From the NCBI RefSeq assembly GCF_030013595.1, contig NZ_CP122768.1: 64,000 nucleotides of DNA. The stretch is one strand, 5' to 3'. A program made the position numbers and the translations under genes. The stretch comes from Escherichia coli. Its GTDB lineage: Bacteria; Pseudomonadota; Gammaproteobacteria; Enterobacterales; Enterobacteriaceae. Positions 1 through 43,721 of this stretch are shown in pieces. The number at the start of each line of letters is the position of its first letter. Position 1 is the first letter of the stretch. The notes beneath the pieces are model-generated. The model was given only the letters and a program-made list of their open reading frames with translations, made no database searches and was not told the origin of the DNA.

Positions 1-650
1 ATATTGCCGATTACGAGCATCTGGGCGTTTATGCTTGCCGAATTATCGTGCCTGGCATGTCCGATATTTATCCGGCTGAAGATCTGTGGCTGGCGAATAA
101 CAGTATGGGCAGCCATTTACGTGAAACGATTCTTTCGTTACCAGGCAGCGAGTGGGAAAAAGAAGATTACCTGAACCTCATCGAGCAACTGGATGAAGAA
201 GGTTTTGATGACTTTACCCGCGTGCGTGAGCTGTTGGGTCTGGCGACCGGGTCGGATAACGGTTGGTACACCCTGCGTATCGGTGAATTAAAAGCCATGC
301 TGGCGCTGGCTGGTGGCGATCTGGAACAGGCTCTGGTCTGGACCGAATGGACGATGGAGTTTAACTCATCAGTATTTAGTCCGGAACGCGCCAACTATTA
401 TCGCTGCCTGCAAACGTTGTTATTACTGGCGCAGGAAGAAGATCGCCAGCCGCTGCAATATCTGAATGCGTTTGTTCGCATGTACGGCGCAGATGCCGTG
501 GAAGCCGCCAGTGCGGCAATGAGCGGCGAAGCGGCGTTTTATGGCTTGCAACCAGTAGATAGCGATCTGCACGCGTTTGCTGCACATCAGTCGTTGTTGA
601 AGGCCTACGAAAAGCTGCAGCGCGCCAAAGCAGCATTCTGGGCAAAATAA
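1..650 (+). CDS. ycaO: YcaO-family protein, C-terminal part (5' end lies outside window; frame is open from base 3)
   Basis: Open frame continuous from window start to stop at 650; sits directly upstream of focA-pflB as in E. coli; assignment from remembered synteny. Confidence 0.6.
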   Translation, partial: IADYEHLGVYACRIIVPGMSDIYPAEDLWLANNSMGSHLRETILSLPGSEWEKEDYLNLIEQLDEEGFDDFTRVRELLGLATGSDNGWYTLRIGELKAMLALAGGDLEQALVWTEWTMEFNSSVFSPERANYYRCLQTLLLLAQEEDRQPLQYLNAFVRMYGADAVEAASAAMSGEAAFYGLQPVDSDLHAFAAHQSLLKAYEKLQRAKAAFWAK

Positions 651-981
651 AATCAAATAGCCTTCGCAATGTAGGCTTAATGATTCGTCTGAGTTATATT
701 ACGGGGCGTTTTTTTAATGCCCCGCTTTACATATATTTGCATTAATAAAATAATTGTAATTATAAAGTTAAATATCGGTAATTTGTATTTAATAAATACG
801 ATCGATATTGTTACTTTATTCGCCTGGTGCTCCCTTTTAATTAACTGTTTTAGCGGAGGATGCGGAAAAAATTCAACTCATTTGTTAATTTTTAAAATTT
901 ATTTTTATTTGGATAATCAAATAGTTACTCCGTATTTGCATAAAAACCATGCGAGTTACGGGCCTATAAGCCAGGCGAGAT

Positions 982-995
982 ATGATCTATATCAA
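982..995 (+). promoter_or_regulatory. Candidate FNR half-site pair (ATGAT-N4-ATCAA) upstream of focA, followed by a TATAAT-like -10 at 1005..1010
   Basis: Match to TTGAT-N4-ATCAA consensus in the AT-rich focA-pfl promoter region; focA-pfl is known to be FNR-activated. Confidence 0.35.
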
Positions 996-1055
996 TTTCT
1001 CATCTATAATGCTTTGTTAGTATCTCGTCGCCGACTTAATAAAGAGAGAGTTAGT

Positions 1056-1913
1056 GTGAAAGCTGACAACCCTTTTGATCTTTTACTTCCTGCAGCAATG
1101 GCCAAAGTGGCCGAAGAGGCAGGTGTCTATAAAGCAACGAAACATCCGCTTAAGACTTTCTATCTGGCGATTACCGCCGGTGTTTTCATCTCAATCGCAT
1201 TCGTCTTCTATATCACAGCAACCACTGGCACAGGCACAATGCCCTTCGGCATGGCAAAACTGGTTGGCGGCATTTGCTTCTCTCTGGGGCTGATTCTTTG
1301 TGTTGTCTGCGGAGCCGATCTCTTTACTTCCACAGTGTTGATTGTTGTTGCTAAGGCGAGTGGGCGAATCACCTGGGGTCAGTTGGCGAAAAACTGGCTA
1401 AATGTCTATTTTGGCAACCTGGTCGGCGCACTGCTGTTTGTACTTTTAATGTGGCTTTCCGGCGAGTATATGACCGCGAATGGTCAATGGGGACTAAACG
1501 TCCTACAAACCGCCGACCACAAAGTGCACCATACTTTTATTGAGGCCGTCTGTCTTGGTATCCTGGCAAACCTGATGGTATGTCTGGCAGTATGGATGAG
1601 TTATTCTGGCCGCAGCCTGATGGATAAAGCGTTCATTATGGTGCTGCCGGTCGCGATGTTTGTTGCCAGCGGTTTTGAGCACAGTATCGCAAACATGTTT
1701 ATGATCCCGATGGGTATTGTAATCCGCGACTTCGCATCTCCGGAATTCTGGACCGCTGTCGGTTCTGCACCGGAAAATTTTTCTCACCTGACCGTGATGA
1801 ACTTCATCACTGATAACCTGATTCCGGTTACGATCGGTAATATTATCGGCGGTGGTTTGTTGGTTGGGTTGACATACTGGGTCATTTACCTGCGTGAAAA
1901 CGATCACCATTAA
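1056..1913 (+). CDS. focA: Formate channel FocA (GTG start; the 717 ORF is an upstream over-extension)
   Basis: Translation VKADNPFDLLLPAAMAKVAEEAGVYKATKHPLKTFYLAITAG... typical formate/nitrite transporter; precedes pflB. Confidence 0.9.
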   Translation: MKADNPFDLLLPAAMAKVAEEAGVYKATKHPLKTFYLAITAGVFISIAFVFYITATTGTGTMPFGMAKLVGGICFSLGLILCVVCGADLFTSTVLIVVAKASGRITWGQLAKNWLNVYFGNLVGALLFVLLMWLSGEYMTANGQWGLNVLQTADHKVHHTFIEAVCLGILANLMVCLAVWMSYSGRSLMDKAFIMVLPVAMFVASGFEHSIANMFMIPMGIVIRDFASPEFWTAVGSAPENFSHLTVMNFITDNLIPVTIGNIIGGGLLVGLTYWVIYLRENDHH

Positions 1914-1967
1914 TGGTTGTCGAAGTACGCAGTAAATAAAAAATCCACTTAAGAAGGTAGGTGTTAC

Positions 1968-4250
1968 ATGTCCGAGCTTAATGAAAAGTTAGCCACAGCC
2001 TGGGAAGGTTTTACCAAAGGTGACTGGCAGAATGAAGTAAACGTCCGTGACTTCATTCAGAAAAACTACACTCCGTACGAGGGTGACGAGTCCTTCCTGG
2101 CTGGCGCTACTGAAGCGACCACCACCCTGTGGGACAAAGTAATGGAAGGCGTTAAACTGGAAAACCGCACTCACGCGCCAGTTGACTTTGACACCGCTGT
2201 TGCTTCCACCATCACCTCTCACGACGCTGGCTACATCAACAAAGCGTTGGAAAAAGTTGTTGGTCTGCAGACTGAAGCTCCGCTGAAACGTGCTCTTATC
2301 CCGTTCGGTGGTATCAAAATGATCGAAGGTTCCTGCAAAGCGTACAACCGCGAACTGGACCCGATGATCAAAAAAATCTTCACTGAATACCGTAAAACTC
2401 ACAACCAGGGCGTGTTCGACGTTTACACTCCGGACATCCTGCGTTGCCGTAAATCCGGTGTTCTGACCGGTCTGCCAGATGCTTATGGCCGTGGTCGTAT
2501 CATCGGTGACTACCGTCGCGTTGCGCTGTACGGTATCGACTACCTGATGAAAGACAAACTTGCACAGTTCACCTCTCTGCAGGCTGATCTGGAAAACGGC
2601 GTAAACCTGGAACAGACTATCCGTCTGCGCGAAGAAATCGCTGAACAGCACCGCGCTCTGGGTCAGATGAAAGAAATGGCTGCGAAATACGGCTACGACA
2701 TCTCTGGTCCGGCTACCAACGCTCAGGAAGCTATCCAGTGGACTTACTTCGGCTACCTGGCTGCTGTTAAGTCTCAGAACGGTGCTGCAATGTCCTTCGG
2801 TCGTACCTCCACCTTCCTGGATGTGTACATCGAACGTGACCTGAAAGCTGGCAAGATCACCGAACAAGAAGCGCAGGAAATGGTTGACCACCTGGTCATG
2901 AAACTGCGTATGGTTCGCTTCCTGCGTACTCCGGAATACGATGAACTGTTCTCTGGCGACCCGATCTGGGCAACCGAATCTATCGGTGGTATGGGCCTCG
3001 ACGGTCGTACCCTGGTTACCAAAAACAGCTTCCGTTTCCTGAACACCCTGTACACCATGGGTCCGTCTCCGGAACCGAACATGACCATTCTGTGGTCTGA
3101 AAAACTGCCGCTGAACTTCAAGAAATTCGCCGCTAAAGTGTCCATCGACACCTCTTCTCTGCAGTATGAGAACGATGACCTGATGCGTCCGGACTTCAAC
3201 AACGATGACTACGCTATCGCTTGCTGCGTAAGCCCGATGATCGTTGGTAAACAAATGCAGTTCTTCGGTGCGCGTGCAAACCTGGCGAAAACCATGCTGT
3301 ACGCAATCAACGGTGGCGTTGACGAAAAACTGAAAATGCAGGTTGGTCCGAAGTCTGAGCCGATCAAAGGCGATCTCCTGAACTACGATGAAGTGATGGA
3401 GCGCATGGATCACTTCATGGACTGGCTGGCTAAACAGTACATCACTGCACTGAACATCATCCACTACATGCACGACAAGTACAGCTACGAAGCCTCTCTG
3501 ATGGCGCTGCACGACCGTGACGTTATCCGCACCATGGCGTGTGGTATCGCTGGTCTGTCCGTTGCTGCTGACTCCCTGTCTGCAATCAAATATGCGAAAG
3601 TTAAACCGATTCGTGACGAAGACGGTCTGGCTATCGACTTCGAAATCGAAGGCGAATACCCGCAGTTTGGTAACAACGATCCGCGTGTAGATGACCTGGC
3701 TGTTGACCTGGTAGAACGTTTCATGAAGAAAATTCAGAAACTGCACACCTACCGTGACGCTATCCCGACTCAGTCTGTTCTGACCATCACTTCTAACGTT
3801 GTGTATGGTAAGAAAACTGGTAACACCCCAGACGGTCGTCGTGCTGGCGCGCCGTTCGGACCGGGTGCTAACCCGATGCACGGTCGTGACCAGAAAGGTG
3901 CAGTAGCCTCTCTGACTTCCGTTGCTAAACTGCCGTTTGCTTACGCTAAAGATGGTATCTCCTACACCTTCTCTATCGTTCCGAACGCACTGGGTAAAGA
4001 CGACGAAGTTCGTAAGACCAACCTGGCTGGTCTGATGGATGGTTACTTCCACCACGAAGCGTCCATCGAAGGTGGTCAGCACCTGAACGTTAACGTGATG
4101 AACCGTGAAATGCTGCTCGACGCGATGGAAAACCCGGAAAAATATCCGCAGCTGACCATCCGTGTATCTGGCTACGCAGTACGTTTCAACTCGCTGACTA
4201 AAGAACAGCAGCAGGACGTTATTACTCGTACCTTCACTCAATCTATGTAA
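1968..4250 (+). CDS. pflB: Pyruvate formate-lyase (formate C-acetyltransferase)
   Basis: 760 aa, [39 protein letters not shown]..., glycyl-radical C-terminus RVSGYAVRF; strong codon bias. Confidence 0.95.
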
Positions 4251-4290
4251 TTAGATTTGACTGAAATCGTACAGTAAAAAGCGTACAATA

Positions 4291-4319
4291 AAGGCTCCAC
4301 GAAAGTGGGGCCTTTTTTA
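4291..4319 (+). terminator. Rho-independent terminator after pflB
   Basis: GC stem ggctccac/gtggggcc followed by T6 run. Confidence 0.6.
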
Positions 4320-4441
4320 GCACGAGAGCCTTTTTTGTCAGCTATCTATACTTTAAGGTGACTGCCAAAACAGACTCGACGTAGCCTTCGAGCTGCGCAC
4401 CAACACGGCCTCAGATGGGCCACATCTGGAGAAACACCGCA

Positions 4442-5182
4442 ATGTCAGTTATTGGTCGCATTCACTCCTTTGAATCCTGTGGAACCGTAGACGGCCCGGG
4501 TATTCGCTTTATCACCTTTTTCCAGGGCTGCCTGATGCGCTGCCTGTATTGTCATAACCGCGACACCTGGGACACGCATGGCGGTAAAGAAGTTACCGTT
4601 GAAGATTTAATGAAAGAGGTGGTGACCTATCGCCACTTTATGAACGCTTCCGGCGGCGGCGTTACCGCATCCGGCGGTGAAGCAATCCTGCAAGCTGAGT
4701 TTGTTCGTGACTGGTTCCGCGCCTGCAAAAAAGAAGGCATTCATACCTGTCTGGACACCAACGGTTTTGTTCGTCGTTACGATCCGGTGATTGATGAACT
4801 GCTGGAAGTAACCGACCTGGTAATGCTCGATCTCAAACAGATGAACGACGAGATCCACCAAAATCTGGTTGGAGTTTCAAACCACCGCACGCTGGAGTTC
4901 GCCAAATATCTGGCGAACAAAAATGTGAAGGTGTGGATCCGCTACGTTGTTGTCCCAGGCTGGTCTGACGATGACGATTCAGCGCATCGCCTCGGTGAAT
5001 TTACCCGTGATATGGGCAACGTTGAGAAAATCGAGCTTCTCCCCTACCACGAACTGGGCAAACACAAATGGGTGGCGATGGGTGAAGAATACAAACTTGA
5101 TGGTGTTAAACCACCGAAGAAAGAGACCATGGAACGCGTGAAAGGTATTCTTGAGCAGTACGGTCATAAGGTAATGTTCTAA
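4442..5182 (+). CDS. pflA: Pyruvate formate-lyase activating enzyme (radical SAM)
   Basis: [23 protein letters not shown]... with CxxxCxxC motif ([10 protein letters not shown]); start chosen at 4442 inside the 4415 ORF. Confidence 0.95.
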
Positions 5183-5192
5183 TTTCCCCGTA

Positions 5193-5226
5193 AAGCGGCA
5201 ACTTTATTGAGTTGCCGCTTTTTTAT
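5193..5226 (+). terminator. Rho-independent terminator after pflA
   Basis: Stem gcggcaac/gttgccgc followed by T-run. Confidence 0.6.
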
Positions 5227-5391
5227 TCCGCGCTGCATAAATAATTCAGAGCTCTATTTCTAACGCCCTTACAGCACAGCTTCCAAATGTATTACCCAAA
5301 CCGCCAGTATATGTCCTGCGGCTTGCGCGCATTTCTCGATTATGTAAAAACGGGTCAGATCTGCCAGAGTCAGCGTCATCGACCACAATAA

Positions 5392-6822
5392 TTATTTACC
5401 ATTCGCTTTACGCGCCAGCAGCGGGAATATCAGTCCTAATCCTACCAACACAAACGGCGTTGCAACATTCAGCGCCAACTGGAAGGTCCACTCTGCAGTG
5501 AAGGCTTCCATTTTCGGGAAGATCCCCGTCAAACAGGCAAAAGCGGTAAAGGCAAAACACCAAATTCCGACGGTCATTGCCAGCGGCTTATTACGAATAA
5601 AGACATATTCCGGCTTATATTTCTGCGCCAGGCGAACAACTGCAATAAATGCAACAAATACCCATAAATAACGCAGCGGCATCACTACCGAGTTAAGATT
5701 CAACAGCCATTTATAGAGATTGTTCATATCACCAATGCCGAGAGTCGGTAGCATTATCAGGATCGCCACCAGCACCAGGGTCAGAAAATAGCCATTAACG
5801 GGCGTACCAGAAGCGTTGGTACGACATAAACTGGCTGGAATATATTTGCTGTCAGCATCGCCTAATAACACTTTAAGCGGCGCATCAATCGAGAATACCA
5901 GCGCAGCTACTTGTCCCAGGGTATTCGCAATGGCATAAATCACCATTAAAGTATTACCCATGTTGTAATACTCGCCCAGCTTCTGAAAGGCGTAATACTG
6001 ACCGTTAGTCATTAAGTCATCCGGGATATTACGCGAGTCAAACATCATCCCCATCGCCAGTGAGCCCAGAATGGCACAAACCGCAACCATCACCGCCAGG
6101 CATAACATCCCTTTTGGAAATTCTTTTCCTGGGTTGCGCGTTTGATTAACGTAAGGAGAAATCTTCTCTGCTCCGCCAACCGCGAAAACCAGCATTGAAA
6201 TAGTGGTAATGTAGGTAAAGTCGATATGAGGAATGAACGTTTCCCAGGTAATGTTTGTGGTCGCAATATGCACTTCAGTAATCGCAGGCGCGGTTACCGC
6301 CATCGCCACATACAGGAGCGACATAACAAACATCGCAATCCCTGCCACAGAACCGACGATTTTCAGCGATTTCATACCGCGTGAAGCAACCCACATAAAG
6401 AAGATAAACAGCACCAGCGTTAACCCCTGTAACGCTACGACTGAATATTCTTTGATTAACGAACCGTCGCCTTTCATCGCCCAACCGAGCGCAATCAGTA
6501 TTGCCTGGGGTTTTTGTGCCAGATAGGGAATATGCACTACCCAGTAGGTCCACGCGGCGAGGTAAGCCAGTCCGGGTCCCATCGTGTGTTTAATCCAGGT
6601 ACTGACCCCGCCCTTCCCATCTTTGAAGGTCGAGCCTAACTGACCAACAATTAGCGCATAAGGTGTGAAATAGAGCGCAAAGATAAACACCCATGAAAAA
6701 ACAACCACCAGCCCCTGGTTGGCGTAGTTATTAACAACGTTGCCAAAACCCCAGACAGTGATAAAAGACATCAGCGCAATGTTGTACCATCGCAGCTGTT
6801 TTTCCTGAACATTCCCAGCCAT
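5392..6822 (-). CDS. ycaM: APC-family amino acid transporter (YcaM-like); start at internal ATG with AAGGA RBS, upstream part of ORF is over-extension
   Basis: Multi-pass membrane protein translation; RBS aagga 8 nt upstream of ATG at 6822; position between pflA and ycaD. Confidence 0.7.
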   Translation of the reverse strand: MAGNVQEKQLRWYNIALMSFITVWGFGNVVNNYANQGLVVVFSWVFIFALYFTPYALIVGQLGSTFKDGKGGVSTWIKHTMGPGLAYLAAWTYWVVHIPYLAQKPQAILIALGWAMKGDGSLIKEYSVVALQGLTLVLFIFFMWVASRGMKSLKIVGSVAGIAMFVMSLLYVAMAVTAPAITEVHIATTNITWETFIPHIDFTYITTISMLVFAVGGAEKISPYVNQTRNPGKEFPKGMLCLAVMVAVCAILGSLAMGMMFDSRNIPDDLMTNGQYYAFQKLGEYYNMGNTLMVIYAIANTLGQVAALVFSIDAPLKVLLGDADSKYIPASLCRTNASGTPVNGYFLTLVLVAILIMLPTLGIGDMNNLYKWLLNLNSVVMPLRYLWVFVAFIAVVRLAQKYKPEYVFIRNKPLAMTVGIWCFAFTAFACLTGIFPKMEAFTAEWTFQLALNVATPFVLVGLGLIFPLLARKANGK

Positions 6823-7031
6823 AGACAAATCCTTCGCCAAAATTAAAGGGGCATCTGTAAAACGAGGGATTATGCGCGGCAAATAAGAAGTGCGGAAATA
6901 GCGAAATGCAAAATTATAACCTGCTGCACATTTTATTTTTAAACGAATAAAATTTGGAATAAAGCAAGTCAGATAGAAGAAACAAAAAAGCAGAGTGTGA
7001 AACAGTAAGTTCACACTCTGCTTGAATTCAT

Positions 7032-8180
7032 TTACACGTGAGCAACGGGTTTCGGCGTATGACCGGCGTTGCGAAGCAGCATCAGCAAATAGATAAACGA
7101 TACGCTGGCGATCATGATAAACAATAAATTATCGGAGAAATTCTGCATTAGCATGGCAGTAAATGACGGGCCAAGCAGACTTCCCACGGTATAGCTCAAC
7201 AGTAAGGCCTGGTTCATCGCCACCAGTTGATGATGTTCAACTTTCTCGCAAGCCCATGCCATCGCCACCGGATATAGCGTAAAGCCAGCGGCACCGAGGA
7301 TGAATAACGCTGGGGCCATCGCCGCCTGGCTAAGCATCGCGATACTGCCGAGAATGACGACAAAGACCTGAACACGCAACACCAGCAGTCGACCAAACTT
7401 ATCCGCCAAACGTCCAATCGGCCATTGTCCAAGGATACCCGCACTGACCAGTACCGCCATCCAGAAACCAATGCTGGCATTGCTCACCCCTTTGTGATTG
7501 AGGTACAGCGGCATCAGGCCATATAGAGATCCCAGAACGATTCCTGAGATAATGCAGCCATTCACGCCAAGCCGCGCCTGACGGAGTTTTAGCATTGACG
7601 TAATTGACGTCGAATCATGGTTTTCAGCCTGCTGATTCAGCACACGCGTAAACAACAGCGGTAAGATCCCTGCCAACGTCAAACCTGTAACCCACGGCAA
7701 TACGGACATCAGCTCGGTTGAAACTTTGCTGACCAGTAACTGGCCTAAAAACGTTCCCACGTAATAAACCATCATATACGCAGCAAGCAAACGCCCACGG
7801 TTACGTGACGTCCCACTGCACATCAGCGCGCTCTCAACAACCACCCAAATCATGGCACAGCCGACGCCGGCGACAAAACGCCAAGCCAACCAGCTCCAGA
7901 ATCCAATCATCAGGCCAAGGCCGGCACAGCCAGCGGCAAAAATGAAGGAGGCCAGATAATAGCTGCGGTTAAAGCCAATGCGCTTAATGACATACCCTGT
8001 CAGCAATGTACCGACCAGGTTGCCGGTAAAATAGGATGAGCTGACAACGCCTACCTGCCATGTGGACATGTGTTCCTGGGCGAGCCAAAGCGGCACGAGT
8101 GTATTTAACACTGCGATCGCCAGAGTCAACAAAAGCAGGCCAGACAGCAAAAGCATGACAGGCCGGGTATACGTGGACAT
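7032..8180 (-). CDS. ycaD: MFS transporter YcaD-like
   Basis: 382 aa, 12-TM-like hydrophobic profile, MFS-type sequence. Confidence 0.75.
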
Positions 8181-8494
8181 GAATTAAAACCGTGAGGAAG
8201 TTCAAATTTCATGCGCATCATGCCACCGCCAAAAACATTGTCAATGGGTGAAAATACGCGCATATCGCAGCGGAGGTATTATCGATTTATATTACTCATT
8301 CATAACGCTAATGCTGGAGAGACGATTAATCTCATCTGATTGTTTTTATTGATCTAACACAAATTTCATACGCTTCGTTCAGTCGAAAAATTTCATGGTC
8401 AAAGCAAACTCATATTTCCCGTCTATGCTTTCAGAGCAATGCATCGCGTCTGACCGATTTCAGACGTACCACTGACTCTCGAAAGGAGAAGAGG

Positions 8495-9121
8495 ATGACC
8501 AAACCGTATGTTCGTCTTGATAAAAATGATGCTGCCGTTTTGCTTGTTGATCACCAGGCTGGTTTACTTTCCCTTGTACGGGATATCGAACCCGATAAGT
8601 TTAAAAATAACGTGCTGGCGCTGGGCGACCTGGCTAAGTATTTCAACTTACCTACTATTCTTACCACCAGTTTTGAAACCGGTCCTAACGGCCCATTAGT
8701 TCCAGAACTGAAAGCACAATTCCCCGATGCACCTTACATTGCTCGCCCGGGCAATATTAACGCCTGGGATAACGAAGATTTTGTAAAAGCAGTCAAAGCG
8801 ACAGGTAAAAAACAGTTAATTATTGCCGGTGTGGTAACCGAAGTTTGCGTGGCATTCCCGGCGCTTTCAGCCATTGAAGAAGGGTTTGACGTCTTTGTCG
8901 TGACTGACGCGTCAGGGACCTTTAATGAAATTACCCGGCATTCGGCATGGGATCGCATGTCGCAAGCTGGTGCGCAATTGATGACATGGTTCGGCGTGGC
9001 GTGCGAGCTGCATCGCGACTGGCGTAATGATATTGAAGGACTGGCGACGTTGTTCTCTAACCATATTCCTGATTATCGTAATTTGATGACCAGTTATGAC
9101 ACGTTAACGAAGCAGAAATAA
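8495..9121 (+). CDS. ycaC: Isochorismatase-family hydrolase YcaC
   Basis: 208 aa, cysteine hydrolase family-like sequence (…VTEVCVAFPAL…). Confidence 0.8.
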   Translation: MTKPYVRLDKNDAAVLLVDHQAGLLSLVRDIEPDKFKNNVLALGDLAKYFNLPTILTTSFETGPNGPLVPELKAQFPDAPYIARPGNINAWDNEDFVKAVKATGKKQLIIAGVVTEVCVAFPALSAIEEGFDVFVVTDASGTFNEITRHSAWDRMSQAGAQLMTWFGVACELHRDWRNDIEGLATLFSNHIPDYRNLMTSYDTLTKQK

Positions 9122-9155
9122 AAGAGAACCGGGGCCGAAACCCCGGTTGTTATGA

Positions 9156-10019
9156 TTAGCTTGCGACGGCCATCCCCACGGTCATATGCAAACCATAGAA
9201 TACGCCACGACCGATTAATTCCCCTGCCAGAAGCAGAATGAATGATACGGAAAGTAGCGGAACCGCAGGCTGATAACCTTTTAGCTGTGGTGCAATCCAC
9301 AAGCACAGGGCAACGGCCAAAAGCACGATCCGCCAGGACATCAGCGCACCATAGTCCGGCACCAGCGCTGCGGCCTGCTGCACAGAGCTATGAATAGTCG
9401 CCAGCTCTGCGCCCTGCATCACTGACACCACGCCACTCACTACCAGGGCCAGTACAGAAATGGCTGGCAGCAGACGCATCGCCCAGCCATCGACGCCAGC
9501 CAGACTCAGCAACAGGTAACCCAGTAACGGGCCGCCCATAAACATCGTCAGGAAGAAGCCCATCGGCGTCCAGATGCTGTACCAGGTCGGAACGGTATCA
9601 ATGCTGTTATACACACGCACCATCATCCAGACAAAGATGACGCCAAGAACCATCGTCACTATCAGCCACAGCGTACGCAATGCCGGTGACAGCTTTTTCA
9701 GCATTGCCAGCAACCAGCCGATGCCACCAACAGCAAAAAAGATCGAACCGCTGGCGATTTCGTTACTGAGTGCTGAAGCCCCTACCCGGTTGAGCGAGTT
9801 AAAGGCGCGCATCGGTGAACCAAGATGAAGCATAGAGGCGATAAAGCCAATGCCCATCAGCACCCATAAACCAAACATGCAGGCAATAACACGCTGCTGG
9901 GCTTCTGCTCGCAGGTCGCCTTTGAGCAGCGCCAAAGCCAGAACGATAAAACCACCCGCTACACATTGCCCGAAGACCGTGAAGATCATCAGCGGCCATT
10001 CATGCCATCCACTTCCCAT
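9156..10019 (-). CDS. dmsC: DMSO reductase membrane anchor subunit
   Basis: Start at MGSGWHEWPLMIFTVFGQ...; polytopic membrane protein immediately downstream of dmsB. Confidence 0.85.
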   Translation of the reverse strand: MGSGWHEWPLMIFTVFGQCVAGGFIVLALALLKGDLRAEAQQRVIACMFGLWVLMGIGFIASMLHLGSPMRAFNSLNRVGASALSNEIASGSIFFAVGGIGWLLAMLKKLSPALRTLWLIVTMVLGVIFVWMMVRVYNSIDTVPTWYSIWTPMGFFLTMFMGGPLLGYLLLSLAGVDGWAMRLLPAISVLALVVSGVVSVMQGAELATIHSSVQQAAALVPDYGALMSWRIVLLAVALCLWIAPQLKGYQPAVPLLSVSFILLLAGELIGRGVFYGLHMTVGMAVAS

Positions 10020-10020
10020 C

Positions 10021-10638
10021 TCACACCTCCTTCGGGTTTGCCAGATAGCCAGTGGTATCCCCGGTCGGGCGGCTGTTGGCATTGGGTTTGATCACAATAT
10101 TCGGTTTGGTAAAGTGAGCTCGCGGCAACGGCGCAACGGCCGCCAGATCGCCATGTTTTTTACGCAGCTCGTCGATAGGGCCGAAATCCAGCGCCCGCAG
10201 CGGGCAAGATTCAACACAGATCGGCTTTTTCCCCTCCGCAACACGGTCATAACAACCATCGCATTTAGTCATATGGCCTTTCGTTTCGTTATATTGCGGT
10301 GCGCCATACGGGCAAGCCATATGGCAGTAGCGGCAGCCAATGCACACATCTTCATCGACCACAACAAAACCATCTTCACGTTTATGCATCGCACCGCTCG
10401 GGCAGACTTTAGTACAAGCCGGATCTTCGCAGTGGTTACATGAAATCGACAGATAGTAGGCAAACACGTTCTGATGCCAGACACCGTTATCTTCCTGCCA
10501 GTCACCGCCAGCATATTCATAAATGCGGCGGAAGCTGACTTCCGGCGTCAGATCTTTATAGTCTTTACAGGCCAGCTCGCAGGTTTTGCAACCGGTGCAA
10601 CGGCTGGAATCAATAAAAAATCCATACTGGGTTGTCAT
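10021..10638 (-). CDS. dmsB: DMSO reductase iron-sulfur subunit
   Basis: 205 aa with four ferredoxin-type Cys clusters (CxxCxxCxxxCP). Confidence 0.9.
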   Translation of the reverse strand: MTTQYGFFIDSSRCTGCKTCELACKDYKDLTPEVSFRRIYEYAGGDWQEDNGVWHQNVFAYYLSISCNHCEDPACTKVCPSGAMHKREDGFVVVDEDVCIGCRYCHMACPYGAPQYNETKGHMTKCDGCYDRVAEGKKPICVESCPLRALDFGPIDELRKKHGDLAAVAPLPRAHFTKPNIVIKPNANSRPTGDTTGYLANPKEV

Positions 10639-10648
10639 CGGTTACTCC

Positions 10649-13093
10649 TTACACCTTTTCAACCTGAACAAGGTTTGTATGTGACGGATTCCCCTTAGCG
10701 AGAGGAGACGGACGTTGAGTGGTCAGTACATTGATACAACCGCCCTTATCGACACGTTTTGCATCCGGGTCATACCAGGCACCTTCACCCAGTGCGACCA
10801 CACCCGGCATCATTCGTGGCGTCACTTTCGCCTCAATATGAACCTCACCACGATCGTTAAAGATCCTGACTTTATCGCCGTTGTTGATACCGCGTTTTTG
10901 CGCATCAAGCGGGTTGATCCACATTTCCTGACGGCAAGCCGCTTTCAGCACATCAACGTTGCCGTAAGTTGAGTGAACGCGAGATTTATAGTGGAAACCC
11001 GTAAGCTGCAGCGGATATTGTTTGTTCAGCGGATCCTGATAACTTTCAAAGCCCGGCGTATAGATCGGCAGTGGATCGATCACATCGCCTTCTGGCAATT
11101 CCCAAGTCGCGGCAATGTCAGCCAGCGCCTGCGAATAAATCTCAATTTTACCCGATGGCGTGGTCAGTGGATTTGCCTGAGGATCTTCACGGAAAGCTTT
11201 ATAAGCAACGTGGTGCCCTTGTGGGTCGCGCTTTTTAAAGATCCCCTGCTTGCGGAACTCTTCAAACGTTGGCAGTTCAGGAATCGCTTCCCGCGACTGG
11301 GCATACAGATGCCGCATCCACTCTTCCTGTGTACGGCCTTCAGTAAACTGTTGCTCAACGCCAAGACGTTTTGCCAGTTCGCTGGTCATTTCATAGATGG
11401 TCTTACATTCAAAGCGCGGTTTAATCACCTGATCGTTGAAAATCACGTAAGACATATTCCCGCAGGATGCATCCAGTGCAAAGTCCATCTGTTCGGAAGC
11501 GGTGCAGTCAGGCAGCAGGATGTCAGCATATTTCGCTGATGAGGTCATGTGGCAGTCGATAACCACAATCAGCTCGCACTTCTTATCATCCTGAAGGATT
11601 TCATGGGTACGGTTGATTTCAGAATGCTGGTTAATCAGGCAGTTACCGGCATAGTTCCAGATCATTTTGATCGGCACATCCAGCTTATCTTTCCCGCGCA
11701 CACCATCACGCAGCGCTGTCATTTCCGGGCCACGTTCAATGGCATCGGTCCACATAAACATCGAAATGCTGGTCTGGATCGGGTTTTCGAGGGTCGGCAT
11801 ACGGACAAACGGTAAGCTGTATGAACCTTCACGCGCGCCGCTGTTGCCTCCGTTAATACCAACGTTACCGGTCAAAATCGCCAGCATCGAGATAGCACGG
11901 GTTGCGATTTCACCGTTAGCGTGACGCTGCGGGCCCCATCCCTGGCTGATAAACGCCGGTTTGGTACTACCGATTTCACGAGCCAGTTTGATGATTTTGT
12001 CTGCCGGAACACCGGTGATTTGCGAGGCCCATTCCGGCGTTTTAGCCACGCCATCTGGCCCTTCACCCAGAATATAAGCTTTATAGTGACCATTTTTCGG
12101 CGCACTGGCTGGCAGTGTTTTCTCGTCGTAGCCAACGCAATATTTATCGAGGAATGCCTGATCCACCAGGTTTTCGGTGATCATGACATACGCCAGACCG
12201 TTAACCAGTGCGGCATCTGTTCCCGGACGAATAGGGATCCACTCATCTTCGCGCCCGGCACCGGTGTCGGTATAGCGCGGATCGATGATGATCATGCGAG
12301 CATTAGATTTCTGGCGCGCCTGTTCAAGATAGTAAGTCACCCCACCGCCACTCATTCGCGTTTCGCCAGGGTTATTACCAAACAGCACTACCAGTTTACT
12401 GTTTTCGATATCCGACGGGCTGTTACCATCTGCCCAGCCGCCGTAGGTATAGTTCAAACCTTCCGCAATTTGCGCGGAAGAGTAGTCACCGTAATGGTTC
12501 AGATAACCGCCGCAGCAGTTCATCAGGCGAGCGACCAGGGTATTTCCCGGCGGCCAGGAGCGGGTCATGGTGCCGCCCAGCGTACCGGTACCATAGTTCA
12601 GATAGATAGACTCGTTGCCGTACTCTTTGATCAGGCGCTGCATATTGGTCGCGATGATGTCGTAGGCTTCTTCCCAGCTAATGCGCTCGAATTTGCCTTC
12701 ACCGCGCGCCCCGACTCGTTTCATCGGATATTTCAGGCGGTCCGGATTGTAGACACGGCGACGCATGGAACGACCACGCAGACAGGCGCGCACCTGGTGC
12801 AGGCCGTCATAGTTGTCATCGCCAGTATTATCCGTTTCAACATATTTGATTTCACCGTCCACGACGTGCATACGTAGCGGGCAGCGACTACCACAGTTAA
12901 CTGTACAGGCGCTCCAGATAACCTTTTCGTCTGATTTTGTTGGAATGGCGCTATCGACAGCGTGCGCAATCCGACTAAAAGGTAATGTTAATGCGCTGCT
13001 GGCCATTGCCAGGCCGCCGATCGCTGTCGTTTTTACCAAACCACGGCGACTCACCTCAGCAGCCAATACCGCATCAGGGATTTTCGTTTTCAT
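10649..13093 (-). CDS. dmsA: DMSO reductase catalytic subunit (molybdopterin), Tat signal
   Basis: 814 aa, twin-arginine motif SRRGLVK in N-terminus, molybdopterin oxidoreductase sequence. Confidence 0.9.
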   Translation of the reverse strand: MKTKIPDAVLAAEVSRRGLVKTTAIGGLAMASSALTLPFSRIAHAVDSAIPTKSDEKVIWSACTVNCGSRCPLRMHVVDGEIKYVETDNTGDDNYDGLHQVRACLRGRSMRRRVYNPDRLKYPMKRVGARGEGKFERISWEEAYDIIATNMQRLIKEYGNESIYLNYGTGTLGGTMTRSWPPGNTLVARLMNCCGGYLNHYGDYSSAQIAEGLNYTYGGWADGNSPSDIENSKLVVLFGNNPGETRMSGGGVTYYLEQARQKSNARMIIIDPRYTDTGAGREDEWIPIRPGTDAALVNGLAYVMITENLVDQAFLDKYCVGYDEKTLPASAPKNGHYKAYILGEGPDGVAKTPEWASQITGVPADKIIKLAREIGSTKPAFISQGWGPQRHANGEIATRAISMLAILTGNVGINGGNSGAREGSYSLPFVRMPTLENPIQTSISMFMWTDAIERGPEMTALRDGVRGKDKLDVPIKMIWNYAGNCLINQHSEINRTHEILQDDKKCELIVVIDCHMTSSAKYADILLPDCTASEQMDFALDASCGNMSYVIFNDQVIKPRFECKTIYEMTSELAKRLGVEQQFTEGRTQEEWMRHLYAQSREAIPELPTFEEFRKQGIFKKRDPQGHHVAYKAFREDPQANPLTTPSGKIEIYSQALADIAATWELPEGDVIDPLPIYTPGFESYQDPLNKQYPLQLTGFHYKSRVHSTYGNVDVLKAACRQEMWINPLDAQKRGINNGDKVRIFNDRGEVHIEAKVTPRMMPGVVALGEGAWYDPDAKRVDKGGCINVLTTQRPSPLAKGNPSHTNLVQVEKV

Positions 13094-13263
13094 AATGGCT
13101 CACTCAAGCTTGCTCACGATTGATTCCAGTAACAAACCGTATTGTGTAATTATTTCTATAGCAGGTCGCTATATAGGCTTGTATACATCTAATAATTTGA
13201 AAATCAAAGAGATAGGTAGATTTTCACTCGAAAGTAGTATTACGTGTAAGTGAGGAGTAATTA

Positions 13264-13277
13264 TTGTTCGGTATCAA
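13264..13277. promoter_or_regulatory. Candidate FNR site (TTGTT-N4-ATCAA) in dmsA upstream region
   Basis: Palindromic match to FNR consensus between serS terminator and dmsA; dmsABC is anaerobically FNR-activated. Confidence 0.35.
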
Positions 13278-13284
13278 AGGGAGA

Positions 13285-13312
13285 CAAAAAAAGCGCCCGC
13301 AGGCGCTTTTTA
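13285..13312 (-). terminator. Hairpin terminator downstream of serS (bidirectional A-run/T-run)
   Basis: aagcgcccgcaggcgctt stem flanked by A6 and T5. Confidence 0.6.
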
Positions 13313-13331
13313 GATTCAGAAAAATTGGGTA

Positions 13332-14645
<1,314 letters not shown>

Positions 14646-14714
14646 TTAAATGGGAGATGTGGCCACAGCCTGCGACCACAGGGATACAGTAACAACATTA
14701 CCGCAACGATAACA

Positions 14715-16058
14715 TTAACGGTAGCGTTTTATGGGGCTATTTTGATCCTGTTCAGCCAGCCAGGCGAGCTTTTCGCCAATCTTGCCTTCAAGGCCCCTGT
14801 TTGTCGGGAAATAATAGCGTGTTTGTGCTATTTCCGGCGGGAAATAAACCTCACCGGCAGCATAAGCGTTTGCTTCATCATGAGCGTAACGATATTCCTG
14901 CCCGTAGCCCATTTCCTTCATTAATTTTGTCGGCGCATTACGCAAATGAACCGGCACGTCATAATCCGGACGTTCGCGAGCATCCGCCAGCGCGGCTTTA
15001 AACGCAGTGTAGACAGCGTTGCTTTTTGGCGCGCAGGCGAGGTAAACAATCGCCTGAGCAATGGCGCGTTCACCTTCCGCCGGGCCAACTCGGGTAAAGC
15101 AATCCCAGGCCGCAATTGCCACCTGCATCGCTCGTGGATCAGCATTACCCACATCTTCAGACGCAATCGCCAGACAGCGACGCGCAACATATAACGGATC
15201 GCCACCAGCGGTAATAATTCGCGCATACCAGTACAGCGCCGCATCGGGTGCGCTACCACGTACCGACTTATGCAGTGCGGAAATGAGATCGTAAAAGCGA
15301 TCGCCTTTGTTATCAAAGCGGGCGCTACGTTCACCGGCGATTTCGGTCAGTAATTCAGGCTTCAGGACCCGCTTACCGCTATCATCGACTTCGGCCATAT
15401 CCGCCATCATTTCCAACGTATTTAACGCCCGGCGCGCGTCGCCATTCACCAGTTCAGCAATGGCGCGTCGTGTTTCATCTGGCAGAACAATATCCTGACC
15501 ACCATAGCCACGGGTTTTGTCTTCCATCGCCTGAGTTAGTACTTGCTCAATATCCTCTGTACTCAGGGATTTCAACAGATAGACACGGGCACGGGAAAGC
15601 AGTGCCGAATTAAGCTCAAACGACGGGTTTTCAGTGGTTGCGCCAATAAAAGTGATGGTGCCGTCTTCAATATGCGGCAGAAATGCATCCTGCTGGCTTT
15701 TGTTGAAACGGTGAACTTCGTCAACAAACAGAATGGTCCGCCGACCAGCATTACGGTTTTGCCGTGCGCGCTCGATCGCCTCGCGAATCTCTTTCACGCC
15801 AGAGGTGACGGCAGAAATACGTTCCACATCAGCGTTCGCATAGCGGGCAATCACTTCAGCGAGGGTTGTTTTGCCGGTACCCGGCGGCCCCCAGAGGATC
15901 ATAGAATGCAAATGCCCGGCTTCGATAGCGCGCGGCAACGGCTTCCCCGCAGCCAGCAAATGTTGCTGGCCGATATACTGTGCTAAATTTTCTGGCCGCA
16001 TACGCGCGGCCAGAGGTTGAAAAGTATTATCCGAAAAATCGAGCGACAGATTGCTCAC
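14715..16058 (-). CDS. rarA: Replication-associated recombination protein A (AAA+ ATPase, MgsA)
   Basis: 447 aa with Walker [12 protein letters not shown]. Confidence 0.9.
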
Positions 16059-16068
16059 TCAGGTGCCT

Positions 16069-16680
16069 CTACTTACGTTGATCATCTACCGTGACGCCTT
16101 GCGGCGGGGTGAAGGTAAATTTCGCTGCTTCCACAGCCCCATTTTGCTGGGATTTCAGTTGATAACTGCTGCGCTGATCGTCCTGCTCCACCGCGCTAAA
16201 CTGATGGATCGTGCCATCACGTCCCACGTTAATGGTGAACTGCTTCAGATTGCCATTGCTGGCTTTCGGCGTCAGGACAAAGTCATCGCCATTCTGTTTG
16301 ATATTGTACTGCTGCCAGTCGCTGGACTGGTTGCGGGCAATCAGCATAAACGGCGTATTACCGGTGGCATCTTTCAGCCAGGTTGCCGTAGCTTGCTCAA
16401 CGAACGGGTTATAGAACCACAGTGTTTTACCGTCAGAAACCAGAATGCTTTCATCAGGTTGAGTCATATGCCAGTTGAATAAGTTTGGACGTTTCACCCA
16501 CAGATCGCCCTGGCCTTCCTGCACCGCCGCGCCGCTACCGTCAGTCACTTTTTGTGTGAAGCTGGCGTGGAAGCTGCTGACTTTATCCAGGCGGCTTTTA
16601 AGATCGCTTGCGGCATCAGCCCAAACGCTGCTTGCTACTAAGCTTGAGAGTAATGCACAGGTGATGGCAATTTTTTTCAT
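16069..16680 (-). CDS. lolA: Outer-membrane lipoprotein carrier protein LolA
   Basis: [27 protein letters not shown]... signal peptide, 203 aa. Confidence 0.9.
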
Positions 16681-16838
16681 CATTATTCCTCAAATTACGT
16701 CACTCCCGATCGGGAGTTCCCTCTACTCTCTATTCCAGGCTAATAATCAGCTTGAGGAAAGAAGAAAATACTGCATTTTCAGTTGTTAGAGTGCCGGATG
16801 CGACGCTACCGCGCCTTATCCGGCCTACGATGCATTAA

Positions 16839-19800
16839 TTAGTCAAACGGCGGTGGGGCCAGCACTTCACGATTACCGTTGTGCCCCTGTTCGCTGACAA
16901 TCCCCTGCGCTTCCATCTGTTCAATAATACGCGCTGCACGGTTATAACCAATGCGGAACTGACGCTGTACGCCAGAAATTGATGCTTTGCGTTTTTCAGT
17001 GACAAACTGCACCGCCTGATCGAACAACGGATCCAGCTCTTCAGCGCCATCGAAACCGCCCGCGCCACCTTCGCTTTCGCTGTCGGAGGTGATGCCATCA
17101 ACATACTGTGGGCGACCACGCGCTTTCCAGTCCTGCACCACGGCATGAACTTCCTGATCGCGAACAAAAGCACCATGAACACGTACCGGCAACGTGGAGT
17201 TCGGCCCAGAGTAAAGCATATCCCCCATACCCAGTAGTGATTCCGCGCCAGCCTGATCAAGAATGGTACGTGAGTCAATCTTACTGGATACGGTAAAGGC
17301 GATACGGGTCGGAATATTCGCTTTAATCAGACCAGTAATAACATCAACCGATGGACGCTGCGTTGCCAGTACGAGGTGGATACCCGCGGCACGGGCTTTT
17401 TGCGCCAGACGTGCTATAAGCTCTTCCACTTTTTTACCTACCGTCATCATCAGGTCGGCAAATTCGTCCACCAACACCACAATGTATGGTTCTTTTTTCA
17501 GCACCGGATGCTGGGCATCCATACTGTCACCCGGCTTCCAGTACGGGTCTGGAATCGGACGCATCATGCGATCGGCTTCAGCAATTTTTTCGTTATAACC
17601 CGCCAGATTACGCACACCCAGCGCAGACATCAGTTTATAACGACGCTCCATCTCGTTAACACACCAGCGCAGCGCGTTGGCGGCATCTTTCATATCGGTA
17701 ACGACTTCCGTTAACAGATGCGGAATGCCTTCATAAACCGAAAGCTCCAGCATTTTCGGGTCAATCATGATGAAACGCACATCTTCTGGCTGTGCTTTAT
17801 AAAGCATGCTCAGGATCATCGCGTTCACCCCGACAGACTTACCGGAACCGGTAGTCCCCGCAACCAACAAGTGCGGCATTTTTGCCAGATCGGCAACCAC
17901 CGGCTCACCGGCGATATCTTTACCCAGCACCACGGTTAATGGCGACGGATTATCGCGGAATTTGGCGTTATCCAAAACTTCGCGCAGATAAACGGTTTGT
18001 CGTTTTTTATTCGGTAACTCCAGACCTACATAGGGTTTGCCAGGAATAACTTCAACGACACGCACCGCCACCGTCGAAAGTGAACGGGCAAGGTCACGTG
18101 ACAAGTTAGAAATACGCGCCGCTTTTACGCCCGGTGCCAGGTTCAATTCAAAGCGAGTGATAACCGGCCCCGGAGAATAATTGACGACATCGGCTTTAAT
18201 ACGGAAATCAGCCAGACGCGCTTCCACCAGGCGCGCCATTTGTTCAAGCGCAAAGGTATCTACCGGCTCCACTTCGCTCGGCGGCGGCGTCAGCAAATCC
18301 AGAGAGGGCAGCGGCGTCGTCGGTTTATGCAACGGACGGCTGTCGCCATTACGCATCAACAGCGGATGAAGCAGGGTATCCTGCGGCTGTGGCGCAACTG
18401 GCTGTTGCGGCTGCTGTGCAACCGGCTGTTGTGGCTGCTGATATTGCTGCTGCGGTGCAACCGGCTGTTGCGGCTGCTGATACTGCGGCTGCGGCGCAAC
18501 TGGTTGCTGCGGCTGCTGATACTGTTGCTGCGGTGCAATCGGTTGTTGCGGCTGCTGTACAGGTTCAACAATTGGCGTAAACAGCGGTTCGTGTGGACCA
18601 TCATCCAGCAACGCTTTCATTGGCGAAAATTCAAAATCATCCAGCGTGAACGGATTCGCCCCAGCCGGTTGTTCGCCGGAATAACGTTGTTGTTGAGTTT
18701 GCGCAAACTGACGAGCCAGTTCAGCCTCTGCCGCAGCATCTGCATCTTCTGCGTTCACGGGCACATCATGTTGATACTGTTCGCCATAGCGTTGCTGCTG
18801 TGTCTGGGCGAACTGACGTGCCAGTTCATCCTGCTGCATCGCATCGATTTCATCATCGTTATACTGATCGCCGGAATCGTACTGATTGCGCTGAGCTTCA
18901 CGGGCTTTTTCTTCTGCCGCACGCTGTGAGGGCAGCTTAATACCGTAAGACGCCAATTCACGACGAGTTGGCACGCGGATACGTTTCGGTCGTGGCAACT
19001 GCGGGCCAATCCCCTCTTTGACCTGCGGACGCGGTCCACCGCTATTTGCCAGACTGAAGACTGGCGCGGCAACGGTTGCGGCAGCCCCCGTCGCCAGTGT
19101 CGCTTTTTTCACGCCAGATGCCAGCGGAGAAACAGCGGCAGCGGCTTCTACTGGAGGTACTGCTGCAACAGAAGGTGCTTTCAGCGAAGATTTGATCGGT
19201 TCTGGTTCTTTAACCGGTTCTGGAATCGGTTGATACCAGGCCGCAAGTTGTTCACGTTCACGGGCTCGCTTCTCTTCCACTTCTTCAAAGTAGTAAAGCG
19301 GCGGACGCGCGGGTTTTGTCTCTTCTACAACGGGTTCAGGCTCCACAACAGGCTGCTGTTCAACAGGTTGCGGCTGTTGGTACAACGGCTCCTGAGCGAC
19401 TGGCTGCTGATAAGTTTGCTCAGTCTGGTATGTAGACTGTGGAGCAAAAGTGGATTGCTGCTCTTCGGCTTGCCAGGCGTTACCTGCCACCGATTGTTCT
19501 GGCGCAGGGGCGTAATACGGCTGTTGCGCAGACTGTTCCGGCGCAGGGGCGTAATACGACTGTTGCGCAGACTGTTCCGGCGCAGTTGCGTAATACGGTT
19601 GCTGAACAGGTTGTTCCGCCGCAGGCGCATAATACGGCTGCTGTGGCTGTACAGGTTGTTGCAGCGGCTCATTATATTGCACTGCAGGCTGCGCATATTG
19701 TGGCTGCTGTGGGTAACCTTCCGGTGCAGGAGCAATAACCGGTTCTCCCGTTTGCGGCCCCGGTACAGGCTGCCAGGCTACTGTAGGTTGTGCAGGTGCA

Positions 19801-28104: not shown

Positions 28105-28192
28105 GGTGAGGTGTCCGAGTGGCTGAAGGAGCACGCCTGGAAAGTGTGTATACGGCAACGTATCGGGGGTTCGAATCCCCCCCTCACCGCCA
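28105..28192 (+). tRNA. serW: tRNA-Ser (anticodon GGA), long variable arm, CCA encoded
   Basis: GGTGAGGTGTCCGAGTGGCTGAAGGAGCACGCCTGGAAAGTG...GGGGTTCGAATCCCCCCCTCACCGCCA; acceptor stem pairs, anticodon loop CTGGAAA. Confidence 0.9.
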
Positions 28193-43350: not shown

Positions 43351-43567
43351 CAGCTTTTCCTTACAGAGTGTGAATAAAAAAGCCGGTACCCACAAAAGTG
43401 GATACCGGCAGGTACAAAACAGCATGGTCAGATAAAGTGGTTTTTCCCGGACATAAATGCTTCCCCTCTCTCATCCGCCAGAGAAGTATCAGTCCGTTGT
43501 GTGCAATTCCGTTATGCATGATGAAGAGATTCAGCTGCCTTTTCGCAGACCATTAACCACTATAAAC

Positions 43568-43603
43568 GATCGATGGAAACGATCGATACCTGTTTTATCG
43601 ATC
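43568..43603. promoter_or_regulatory. Three closely spaced GATC sites upstream of Ag43 gene (Dam/OxyR phase-variation switch candidate)
   Basis: aacGATCgatggaaacGATCgatacctgttttatcGATCg; agn43 phase variation is known to use three GATC sites in the OxyR operator. Confidence 0.55.
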
Positions 43604-43721
43604 GTTTTATTCTATTAACAGCAAGGCAGTCACGCAAGAGAAAGAGGTGGATATGAGGGGGGTGTATCATGTTTTCAGTTGGTTAACGCAATGTAATCAG
43701 GCATTTCCCCTGGCAGACTGT

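Follow-up and report, generated by a model that had tools for sequence, protein, structure and literature searches.

The window analyzed here, a stretch of 64,000 nucleotides of Escherichia coli DNA (NCBI RefSeq assembly GCF_030013595.1, contig NZ_CP122768.1), is collinear with K-12 MG1655 over positions 1-28.2 kb, in reverse orientation and at 98-99% identity, and presents the gene order focA, pflB, pflA, ycaM, ycaD, ycaC, dmsCBA. Gene coordinates were carried over by alignment from a RefSeq-annotated strain whose sequence matches window positions 4400-7300 at 100% identity. The locus of interest is bordered on the left by an intact pflA (4442-5182, plus strand; 98.4% identical to K-12 pflA), which encodes the pyruvate formate-lyase activating enzyme, and on the right by an intact ycaM (5392-6822, minus strand; 97.7% identical to K-12), which encodes an APC-family permease with a Pfam AA_permease_2 match. 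The spacer between them measures 209 bp (5183-5391), in agreement with the gap of ~210 bp given by the initial annotation of this DNA, whereas the same interval in K-12 spans 1,680 bp and has ycaK and ycaN inside it. In this orientation, K-12 reads pflA, ycaK (minus), ycaN (plus), ycaM (minus), with the locus pflA-ycaK-ycaN-ycaM-ycaD corresponding to b0902-b0898; the synteny that the initial annotation gave for these genes is correct by the K-12 annotation. YcaK is a Flavodoxin_2-fold NAD(P)H oxidoreductase by Pfam and has been handled as a nitroreductase-type candidate (PMC3695803). YcaN is a LysR-type regulator with Pfam HTH_1 and LysR_substrate domains.

Alignment of the interval with MG1655, which had been suggested as a check, leaves 1,511 bp of K-12 where the window has 40 bp. 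Megablast pairs window 1-5238 and 5279-18557 with K-12, and the inner anchors are window 5238 (MG1655 950284) and window 5279 (MG1655 948772). The K-12 sequence missing here contains ycaK together with the initial four fifths of ycaN; the stretch at ~948,773-950,252 of MG1655 that has no counterpart in the window comprises ycaK minus its stop codon and ycaN codons 1 to ~260. The flanks are collinear and 98-99% identical, and the two genomes share the pflA terminator, the region of the ycaM stop codon, and the final 113 nt of ycaN. The proposal that ycaN and ycaK are absent is accordingly accurate in part. Relative to K-12, ycaK and most of ycaN are gone, but a 119-nt 3' piece of ycaN survives, which RefSeq carries as a partial pseudogene.

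Reading from pflA, the first feature of the spacer is a predicted intrinsic terminator (5192-5227, plus strand) with a 13-bp stem containing 6 G-C pairs, a 4-nt loop, and a TTTTTT tract; the terminator scan thus recovers the terminator that the initial annotation had noticed in this spacer. Judged by its sequence, the element has the makeup expected of a Rho-independent terminator, namely a G+C-rich stem-loop with a T run directly after it, placed just 3' of the pflA stop codon. The hairpin itself (5192-5221) is followed by the T run and lies outside the deletion. It is kept in K-12, in the pflA-ycaD allele described below, and in other Escherichia species, and the terminator region is identical to both K-12 and the pflA-ycaD allele up to position 5224. 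The same hairpin dominates the opposite-strand fold of the spacer. A promoter scan of the spacer returned one promoter-like match against 0.7 expected, which is chance level.

Beyond the terminator, positions 5239-5272 hold a diverged remnant of the ycaK 3' flank that terminates in TTA (5269-5271), the ycaK stop codon in complement. BLAST of this remnant against K-12 gave no match; gapped alignment places it on positions 2490-2518 of the K-12 locus (L001), and it is 78% identical to the same stretch of E. albertii. Within E. coli, the remnant occurs only in the 1,023 genomes that carry the short allele, always at the pflA-ycaM locus. We had considered that the 40 unalignable base pairs might be foreign filler DNA, as local alignment to the deleted K-12 segment scored at the level of shuffled sequence, but affine-gap alignment and the other Escherichia loci identified them as diverged ycaK 3' flank. 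The stop codon and this flank are all that the spacer retains of ycaK, with no Flavodoxin_2 ORF and no tblastn match.

The deletion junction occupies 5273-5279, as located by split and affine-gap alignment, and joins the K-12 ycaK stop region (…CTTAT[AG]) to ycaN at codon ~261 ([AG]CACAG), giving …CTTAC followed by AGCACAG… in the window. The string AGCACAG is K-12 ycaN sequence (L001 3985-3991); a 10-nt gap lies directly to its right, after which the sequence runs to the ycaN stop. By split alignment, the net loss relative to K-12 is 1,476 bp. A version of the split alignment with linear gap costs had left the junction ambiguous over 5274-5279 and made the window resemble two other Escherichia loci, L005 and L006; it was abandoned when affine gap costs refined the junction to the AG dinucleotide plus the 10-nt loss and separated three junction types.

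The rest of the spacer (5273-5391, plus strand) is a pseudogene fragment made up of the last 119 nt of ycaN, the in-frame part of which (5281-5391) encodes FQMYYPNRQYMSCGLRAFLDYVKTGQICQSQRHRPQ and ends in a stop codon. Over 5279-5391 (113 nt), the fragment is 96.5% identical to the K-12 ycaN 3' end and stays in frame to the ycaN stop codon, which sits at the same place as in K-12. Its identity is established by homology to ycaN in the syntenic position and by this stop codon, which abuts the stop codon of ycaM. The translation FQMYYPNRQYMSCGLRAFLDYVKTG… aligns with an invariant C-terminal block of orthologues from Pseudocitrobacter, Shimwellia, Hafnia, and a Budviciaceae genome, and the block falls within the Pfam LysR_substrate match of K-12 YcaN. 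The fragment does not amount to a functional ycaN: residues ~265-302 are all that remain of a protein that in K-12 has HTH_1 at residues 7-63 and LysR_substrate at residues 91-290, and the ycaN frame upstream of the fragment is interrupted by stop codons. RefSeq labels it 'hypothetical protein, incomplete, missing N-terminus', a partial pseudogene. Together, the two gene fragments are non-coding debris without promoter, start codon, or HTH domain.

To place the window allele within the species, we surveyed 5,426 complete E. coli genomes. The K-12-type allele, counted as present when at least 80% of the ycaK-ycaN segment sits in one place, was found in 3,323 of them (61%), including K-12, B, O104:H4, O111:H8, and O103:H2. 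The window-type junction was found in 1,021 genomes with an 809-bp query and in 1,023 with a 46-bp junction probe (~19%), O157:H7 and pig isolates among them, and the probe had no match elsewhere in the 5,426 genomes. A third allele, pflA-ycaD, which also lacks ycaM, accounts for a further 1,047 genomes (19%), such as the ST131 strains EC958, JJ1886, and SE15, and ~35 genomes carry none of the three. The nearest matches of the window are pig isolates. O157:H7 and other short-allele strains share both the junction and the flank haplotype with the window, cover the 809-bp query in full at 97.5-100% identity, and differ from the window by ordinary point differences only. An error of assembly or sequencing could in principle yield a short spacer; the probability of such an artefact here is negligible, since the identical junction recurs in 1,021-1,023 complete genomes assembled independently by many laboratories.

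The allele of the ST131-type strains is likewise a deletion at this site that spares the pflA terminator, as in the window, but it is larger: it extends from just past the T run of the pflA terminator to the ycaD terminator, so that ycaM is gone and no ycaN fragment is left. In strain FDAARGOS_1264 (L003 6300-6400), the junction corresponds to window position 5224 joined to 6982, with the pflA terminator fused straight to the ycaD terminator. The pflA-ycaM indel is therefore a common three-state polymorphism and not strain-specific. On this point the initial annotation, which had suggested a possible strain-specific indel, does not hold, as 19% of the complete E. coli genomes, O157:H7 included, and the E. 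albertii type strain have the same junction. The short pflA-ycaM spacing in other genomes, which it had named as a refutation, does exist and overturns the strain-specific part of the proposal, while the indel relative to K-12 stands. Our literature search found no paper describing this ycaK-ycaN polymorphism specifically; it is an ordinary gene-content polymorphism, the fragment of which is already flagged in public annotation.

The direction of change was approached by an outgroup scan in which one genome per species was selected by YcaM and then searched by tblastn with the K-12 proteins. The order ycaD-ycaM-pflA with a short spacer and no ycaK-ycaN was found in E. albertii, two other Escherichia lineages, an atypical 'E. 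coli' that is 94-95% identical to the window (L005), Citrobacter, Salmonella arizonae/diarizonae, Kluyvera, Yokenella, and Pluralibacter. Escherichia spacers of this kind measure 209-240 bp, and every one has ycaN 3' fragments; the short spacers of the other genera measure 46-160 bp, and tblastn with YcaN gave no match in them. Such a distribution raised the possibility that the short spacer is ancestral and that K-12-type strains gained ycaK-ycaN by horizontal transfer, as an inserted 'K-island'. At least 25 outgroup loci in which ycaM lies 46-240 bp from pflA without ycaK-ycaN speak for this order of events, as does the fall in YcaN identity from 99-100% in E. coli and Shigella straight to at most 85% in the closest homologues elsewhere. 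We nevertheless dropped it as highly improbable, on the two gene fragments and on synteny outside Escherichia. Remnants of both genes persist in the short allele: from ycaK its stop codon and the adjoining flank, and from ycaN the final 37-39 codons, in frame and matching the invariant LysR C-terminal block. An inserted segment cannot break off partway through a domain and meet, in frame, resident sequence that already codes for the remainder. The K-12 segment has no IS element, integrase, or target-site duplication at its borders, and the segment itself does not look like a mobile element: it consists of ycaK and ycaN only, its right boundary falls inside the ycaN frame, and its ends have in common a 2-nt AG. 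Shimwellia blattae and Pseudocitrobacter corydidari have ycaK-ycaN, but no ycaM, between pflA and ycaD; the pair adjoining pflA in these two species is therefore old at the locus, and the window allele arose by deletion. Whether ycaK-ycaN or ycaM was gained earlier still, in an ancestor of Escherichia, is a question separate from the origin of the window allele, and such a gain may have occurred.

We thus hold with high confidence that the 209-bp spacer is the scar of a deletion of the divergent ycaK-ycaN pair. The ycaN fragment is in frame, 96.5% identical to K-12, retains the invariant residues, and lies within LysR_substrate, and it therefore derives from a complete gene. In the model that we propose, the ancestor would have had the order pflA-ycaK-ycaN-ycaM, as in K-12, and a primary deletion of ~1,466 bp would have joined the ycaK stop region to ycaN codon ~261, possibly through the 2-nt AG microhomology. 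A secondary loss of 10 nt to the right of the junction would then bring the missing sequence to 1,476 bp overall. The pflA terminator and the whole of ycaM were spared, and the leftovers are the 3' flank of ycaK and the final 119 nt of ycaN. The resulting allele is old as well as widespread, and it exists alongside the full allele and the larger pflA-ycaD deletion.

Comparable scars lie in other Escherichia loci (L004 7705-7949, L005 8428-8648, L006 8428-8641, and L007 8428-8644), and their junctions differ. The E. albertii type strain shares with the window the junction string CTTA[C/T]AGCACA and the ycaK 3' flank haplotype (78% identity), which we designate 'CATAAATAATTCAG' for the window/E. 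albertii type and which is undetectable in K-12, L004, L005, and L006. L005 and L006 keep 10 more ycaK bases and fewer ycaN bases than the window (…GCATCAACC joined to TATTACCC), and in L004 the ycaK stop codon is joined to ycaN codon ~250. At least three different junctions thus exist in the genus (window/E. albertii, L005/L006, and L004), with endpoints that scatter over no more than ~16 bp at the ycaK end and ~53 bp at the ycaN end. Counting the pflA-ycaD allele, this would amount to at least four deletion events, and one older deletion, later modified by small secondary losses where its ends were joined, could also account for the pattern. All Escherichia deletions leave the pflA terminator intact, and in the three cases where ycaM is kept, its 3' end is untouched as well; from their sequences, the clustered endpoints may be read as erosion bounded by functional elements.

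The relationship between the E. coli and E. albertii alleles is less straightforward. Despite a junction common to E. albertii, the window ycaN fragment differs from the functional K-12 gene by only 3.5%, a much smaller distance than expected had the deletion preceded the split of E. coli and E. albertii. This combination requires later recombination in the flanks that reached the junction, recurrent deletion, or interspecies transfer. Were the two short alleles products of independent deletions at a hotspot, the at least three tightly clustered junctions would be expected, as deletion here does recur, and so would a fragment that resembles K-12 (96.5%) much more than E. albertii (91% over a 78-nt block). 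The common junction string and the distinctive flank haplotype argue the other way, and we consider independent origins rather unlikely, though a real contender. As an observation in its own right, 91% identity over 78 nt is higher than expected for an old pseudogene.

That conservation bears on the further possibility that the ycaN fragment was kept for a new role, as the 3' UTR or terminator of ycaM, a small RNA, or a peptide. The three independent deletions all leave ~100-150 nt beside the ycaM stop codon, the 91% identity of the 78-nt block between the window and E. albertii is similar to that of the adjacent coding genes, and the ycaM and ycaN transcripts overlap in K-12 (PMC12288877). 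Against these points, the terminator scan gave no terminator-like site on the minus strand, the pflA hairpin explains the fold z-score of -3.2, and Rfam has no match in the spacer; a minus-strand terminator or structured RNA serving ycaM was rejected as a candidate on these three analyses. Moreover, the fragment is more diverged than the flanking genes in L004, L005, and L006, with a 7-nt deletion in L006, and E. albertii has no alignable counterpart of the 27 nt adjoining ycaM. Retention for a new role is on balance quite improbable. Only slightly less so is a broader reading in which the presence or absence of ycaK-ycaN is an old cross-species polymorphism, perhaps maintained by balancing or niche-dependent selection on the YcaN-controlled formate and anaerobic genes by pflAB-focA, or in which the spared fragment was co-opted as the ycaM 3' end; that other Escherichia lineages and ST131-type strains lost the genes repeatedly and independently would agree with the first of these two.

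A deletional origin places the scar in familiar company. Pseudogene remnants left by deletional decay of accessory genes are a general phenomenon in enterobacterial genomes. Like them, the window has a truncated piece without start or promoter and functional elements on both sides, and the junctions at this locus vary among related lineages; the sole unusual feature is a junction shared with a second species, E. albertii.

Several observations on the same site and on YcaM were made along the way. Some Citrobacter and Kluyvera pflA-ycaM spacers hold other cargo (L009 8419-14207, L011, L031, and L040; L014, L019, and L032). One version is an operon of ~5 kb whose ORFs resemble, by eye, PTS components, split transketolase subunits, and a regulator, and the other is a single gene for a protein of ~263 aa with a signal-peptide-like N-terminus. 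The pflA-ycaM site appears to act generally as a hotspot of changing gene content. Among loci L033-L039 and L044, YcaM homologues from Clostridium, Pelosinus, and Anaerospora are 62-66% identical, much closer than expected across phyla, which suggests horizontal transfer; the same set includes a 396-bp contig of a Corallococcus assembly with a 99% identical YcaM fragment, probably E. coli contamination. A genome deposited as 'E. coli strain E69' (CP089930.1, L021) is only ~91% identical to the window over ycaM-dmsA and is thus probably not E. coli in the strict sense; past its ycaM stop codon, unrelated AT-rich sequence stands in place of pflA.

Elsewhere in the window, collinearity with K-12 ends at the 3' end of the tRNA-Ser(GGA) gene serW (28105-28192), and from there on (at least 35.8 kb of 28105-64000) the sequence belongs to a genomic island that K-12 lacks. 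The porcine ETEC strains ETEC1716, ETEC4085, and ETEC1747 carry this island at serW, with 100% identity over 24.9 kb; only 12 of the 5,426 genomes have at least 80% of this 24.9-kb stretch in one place, and UMNK88 carries the island at a different position. By RefSeq, the island encodes a cbtA/yeeU toxin-antitoxin system, an antirestriction protein, patatin-like and dynamin-family proteins, a Cah (Ag43-like) autotransporter, IS66 copies, a PerC-family regulator, and IbrA/IbrB-like genes, and Rfam places an IS102 RNA inside it (43369-43605, minus strand). Within the collinear part, Rfam locates the STnc130 sRNA upstream of dmsA (13184-13318, plus strand), and the ftsK linker (18405-19573) aligns to K-12 in overlapping, offset pieces, which implies a difference in repeat number.

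Returning to the deletion of ycaK-ycaN, its consequences can be anticipated by analogy with K-12. A K-12 ycaN knockout shows decreased ycaC expression, increased ycaD and focA expression, and an altered formate phenotype (PMC9068703). Carriers of the short allele are, by this analogy, likely natural YcaN/YcaK nulls that would lack YcaN control of ycaC, ycaD, and focA. In K-12, ycaM-ycaN is also listed as a convergent excludon (PMC12288877). With the ycaN promoter and 5' part deleted in the window, the overlap partner of ycaM in this excludon should be missing, and we infer that short-allele strains would have no convergent ycaN transcription into the ycaM 3' end. Termination of pflA, in turn, should stay unchanged in these strains.

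The significance of the locus is slight beyond bookkeeping. The pflA-ycaM site is a tidy case of recurrent deletional decay, confined between a terminator and the end of a gene, and it may serve as a simple three-state lineage marker. With O157:H7 and ST131 strains among them, approximately 40% of complete E. coli genomes probably represent natural null mutants of YcaN, a poorly characterized regulator, and of the oxidoreductase YcaK, and K-12 results on YcaN-dependent ycaC, ycaD, and focA can therefore not be assumed to apply to those strains.
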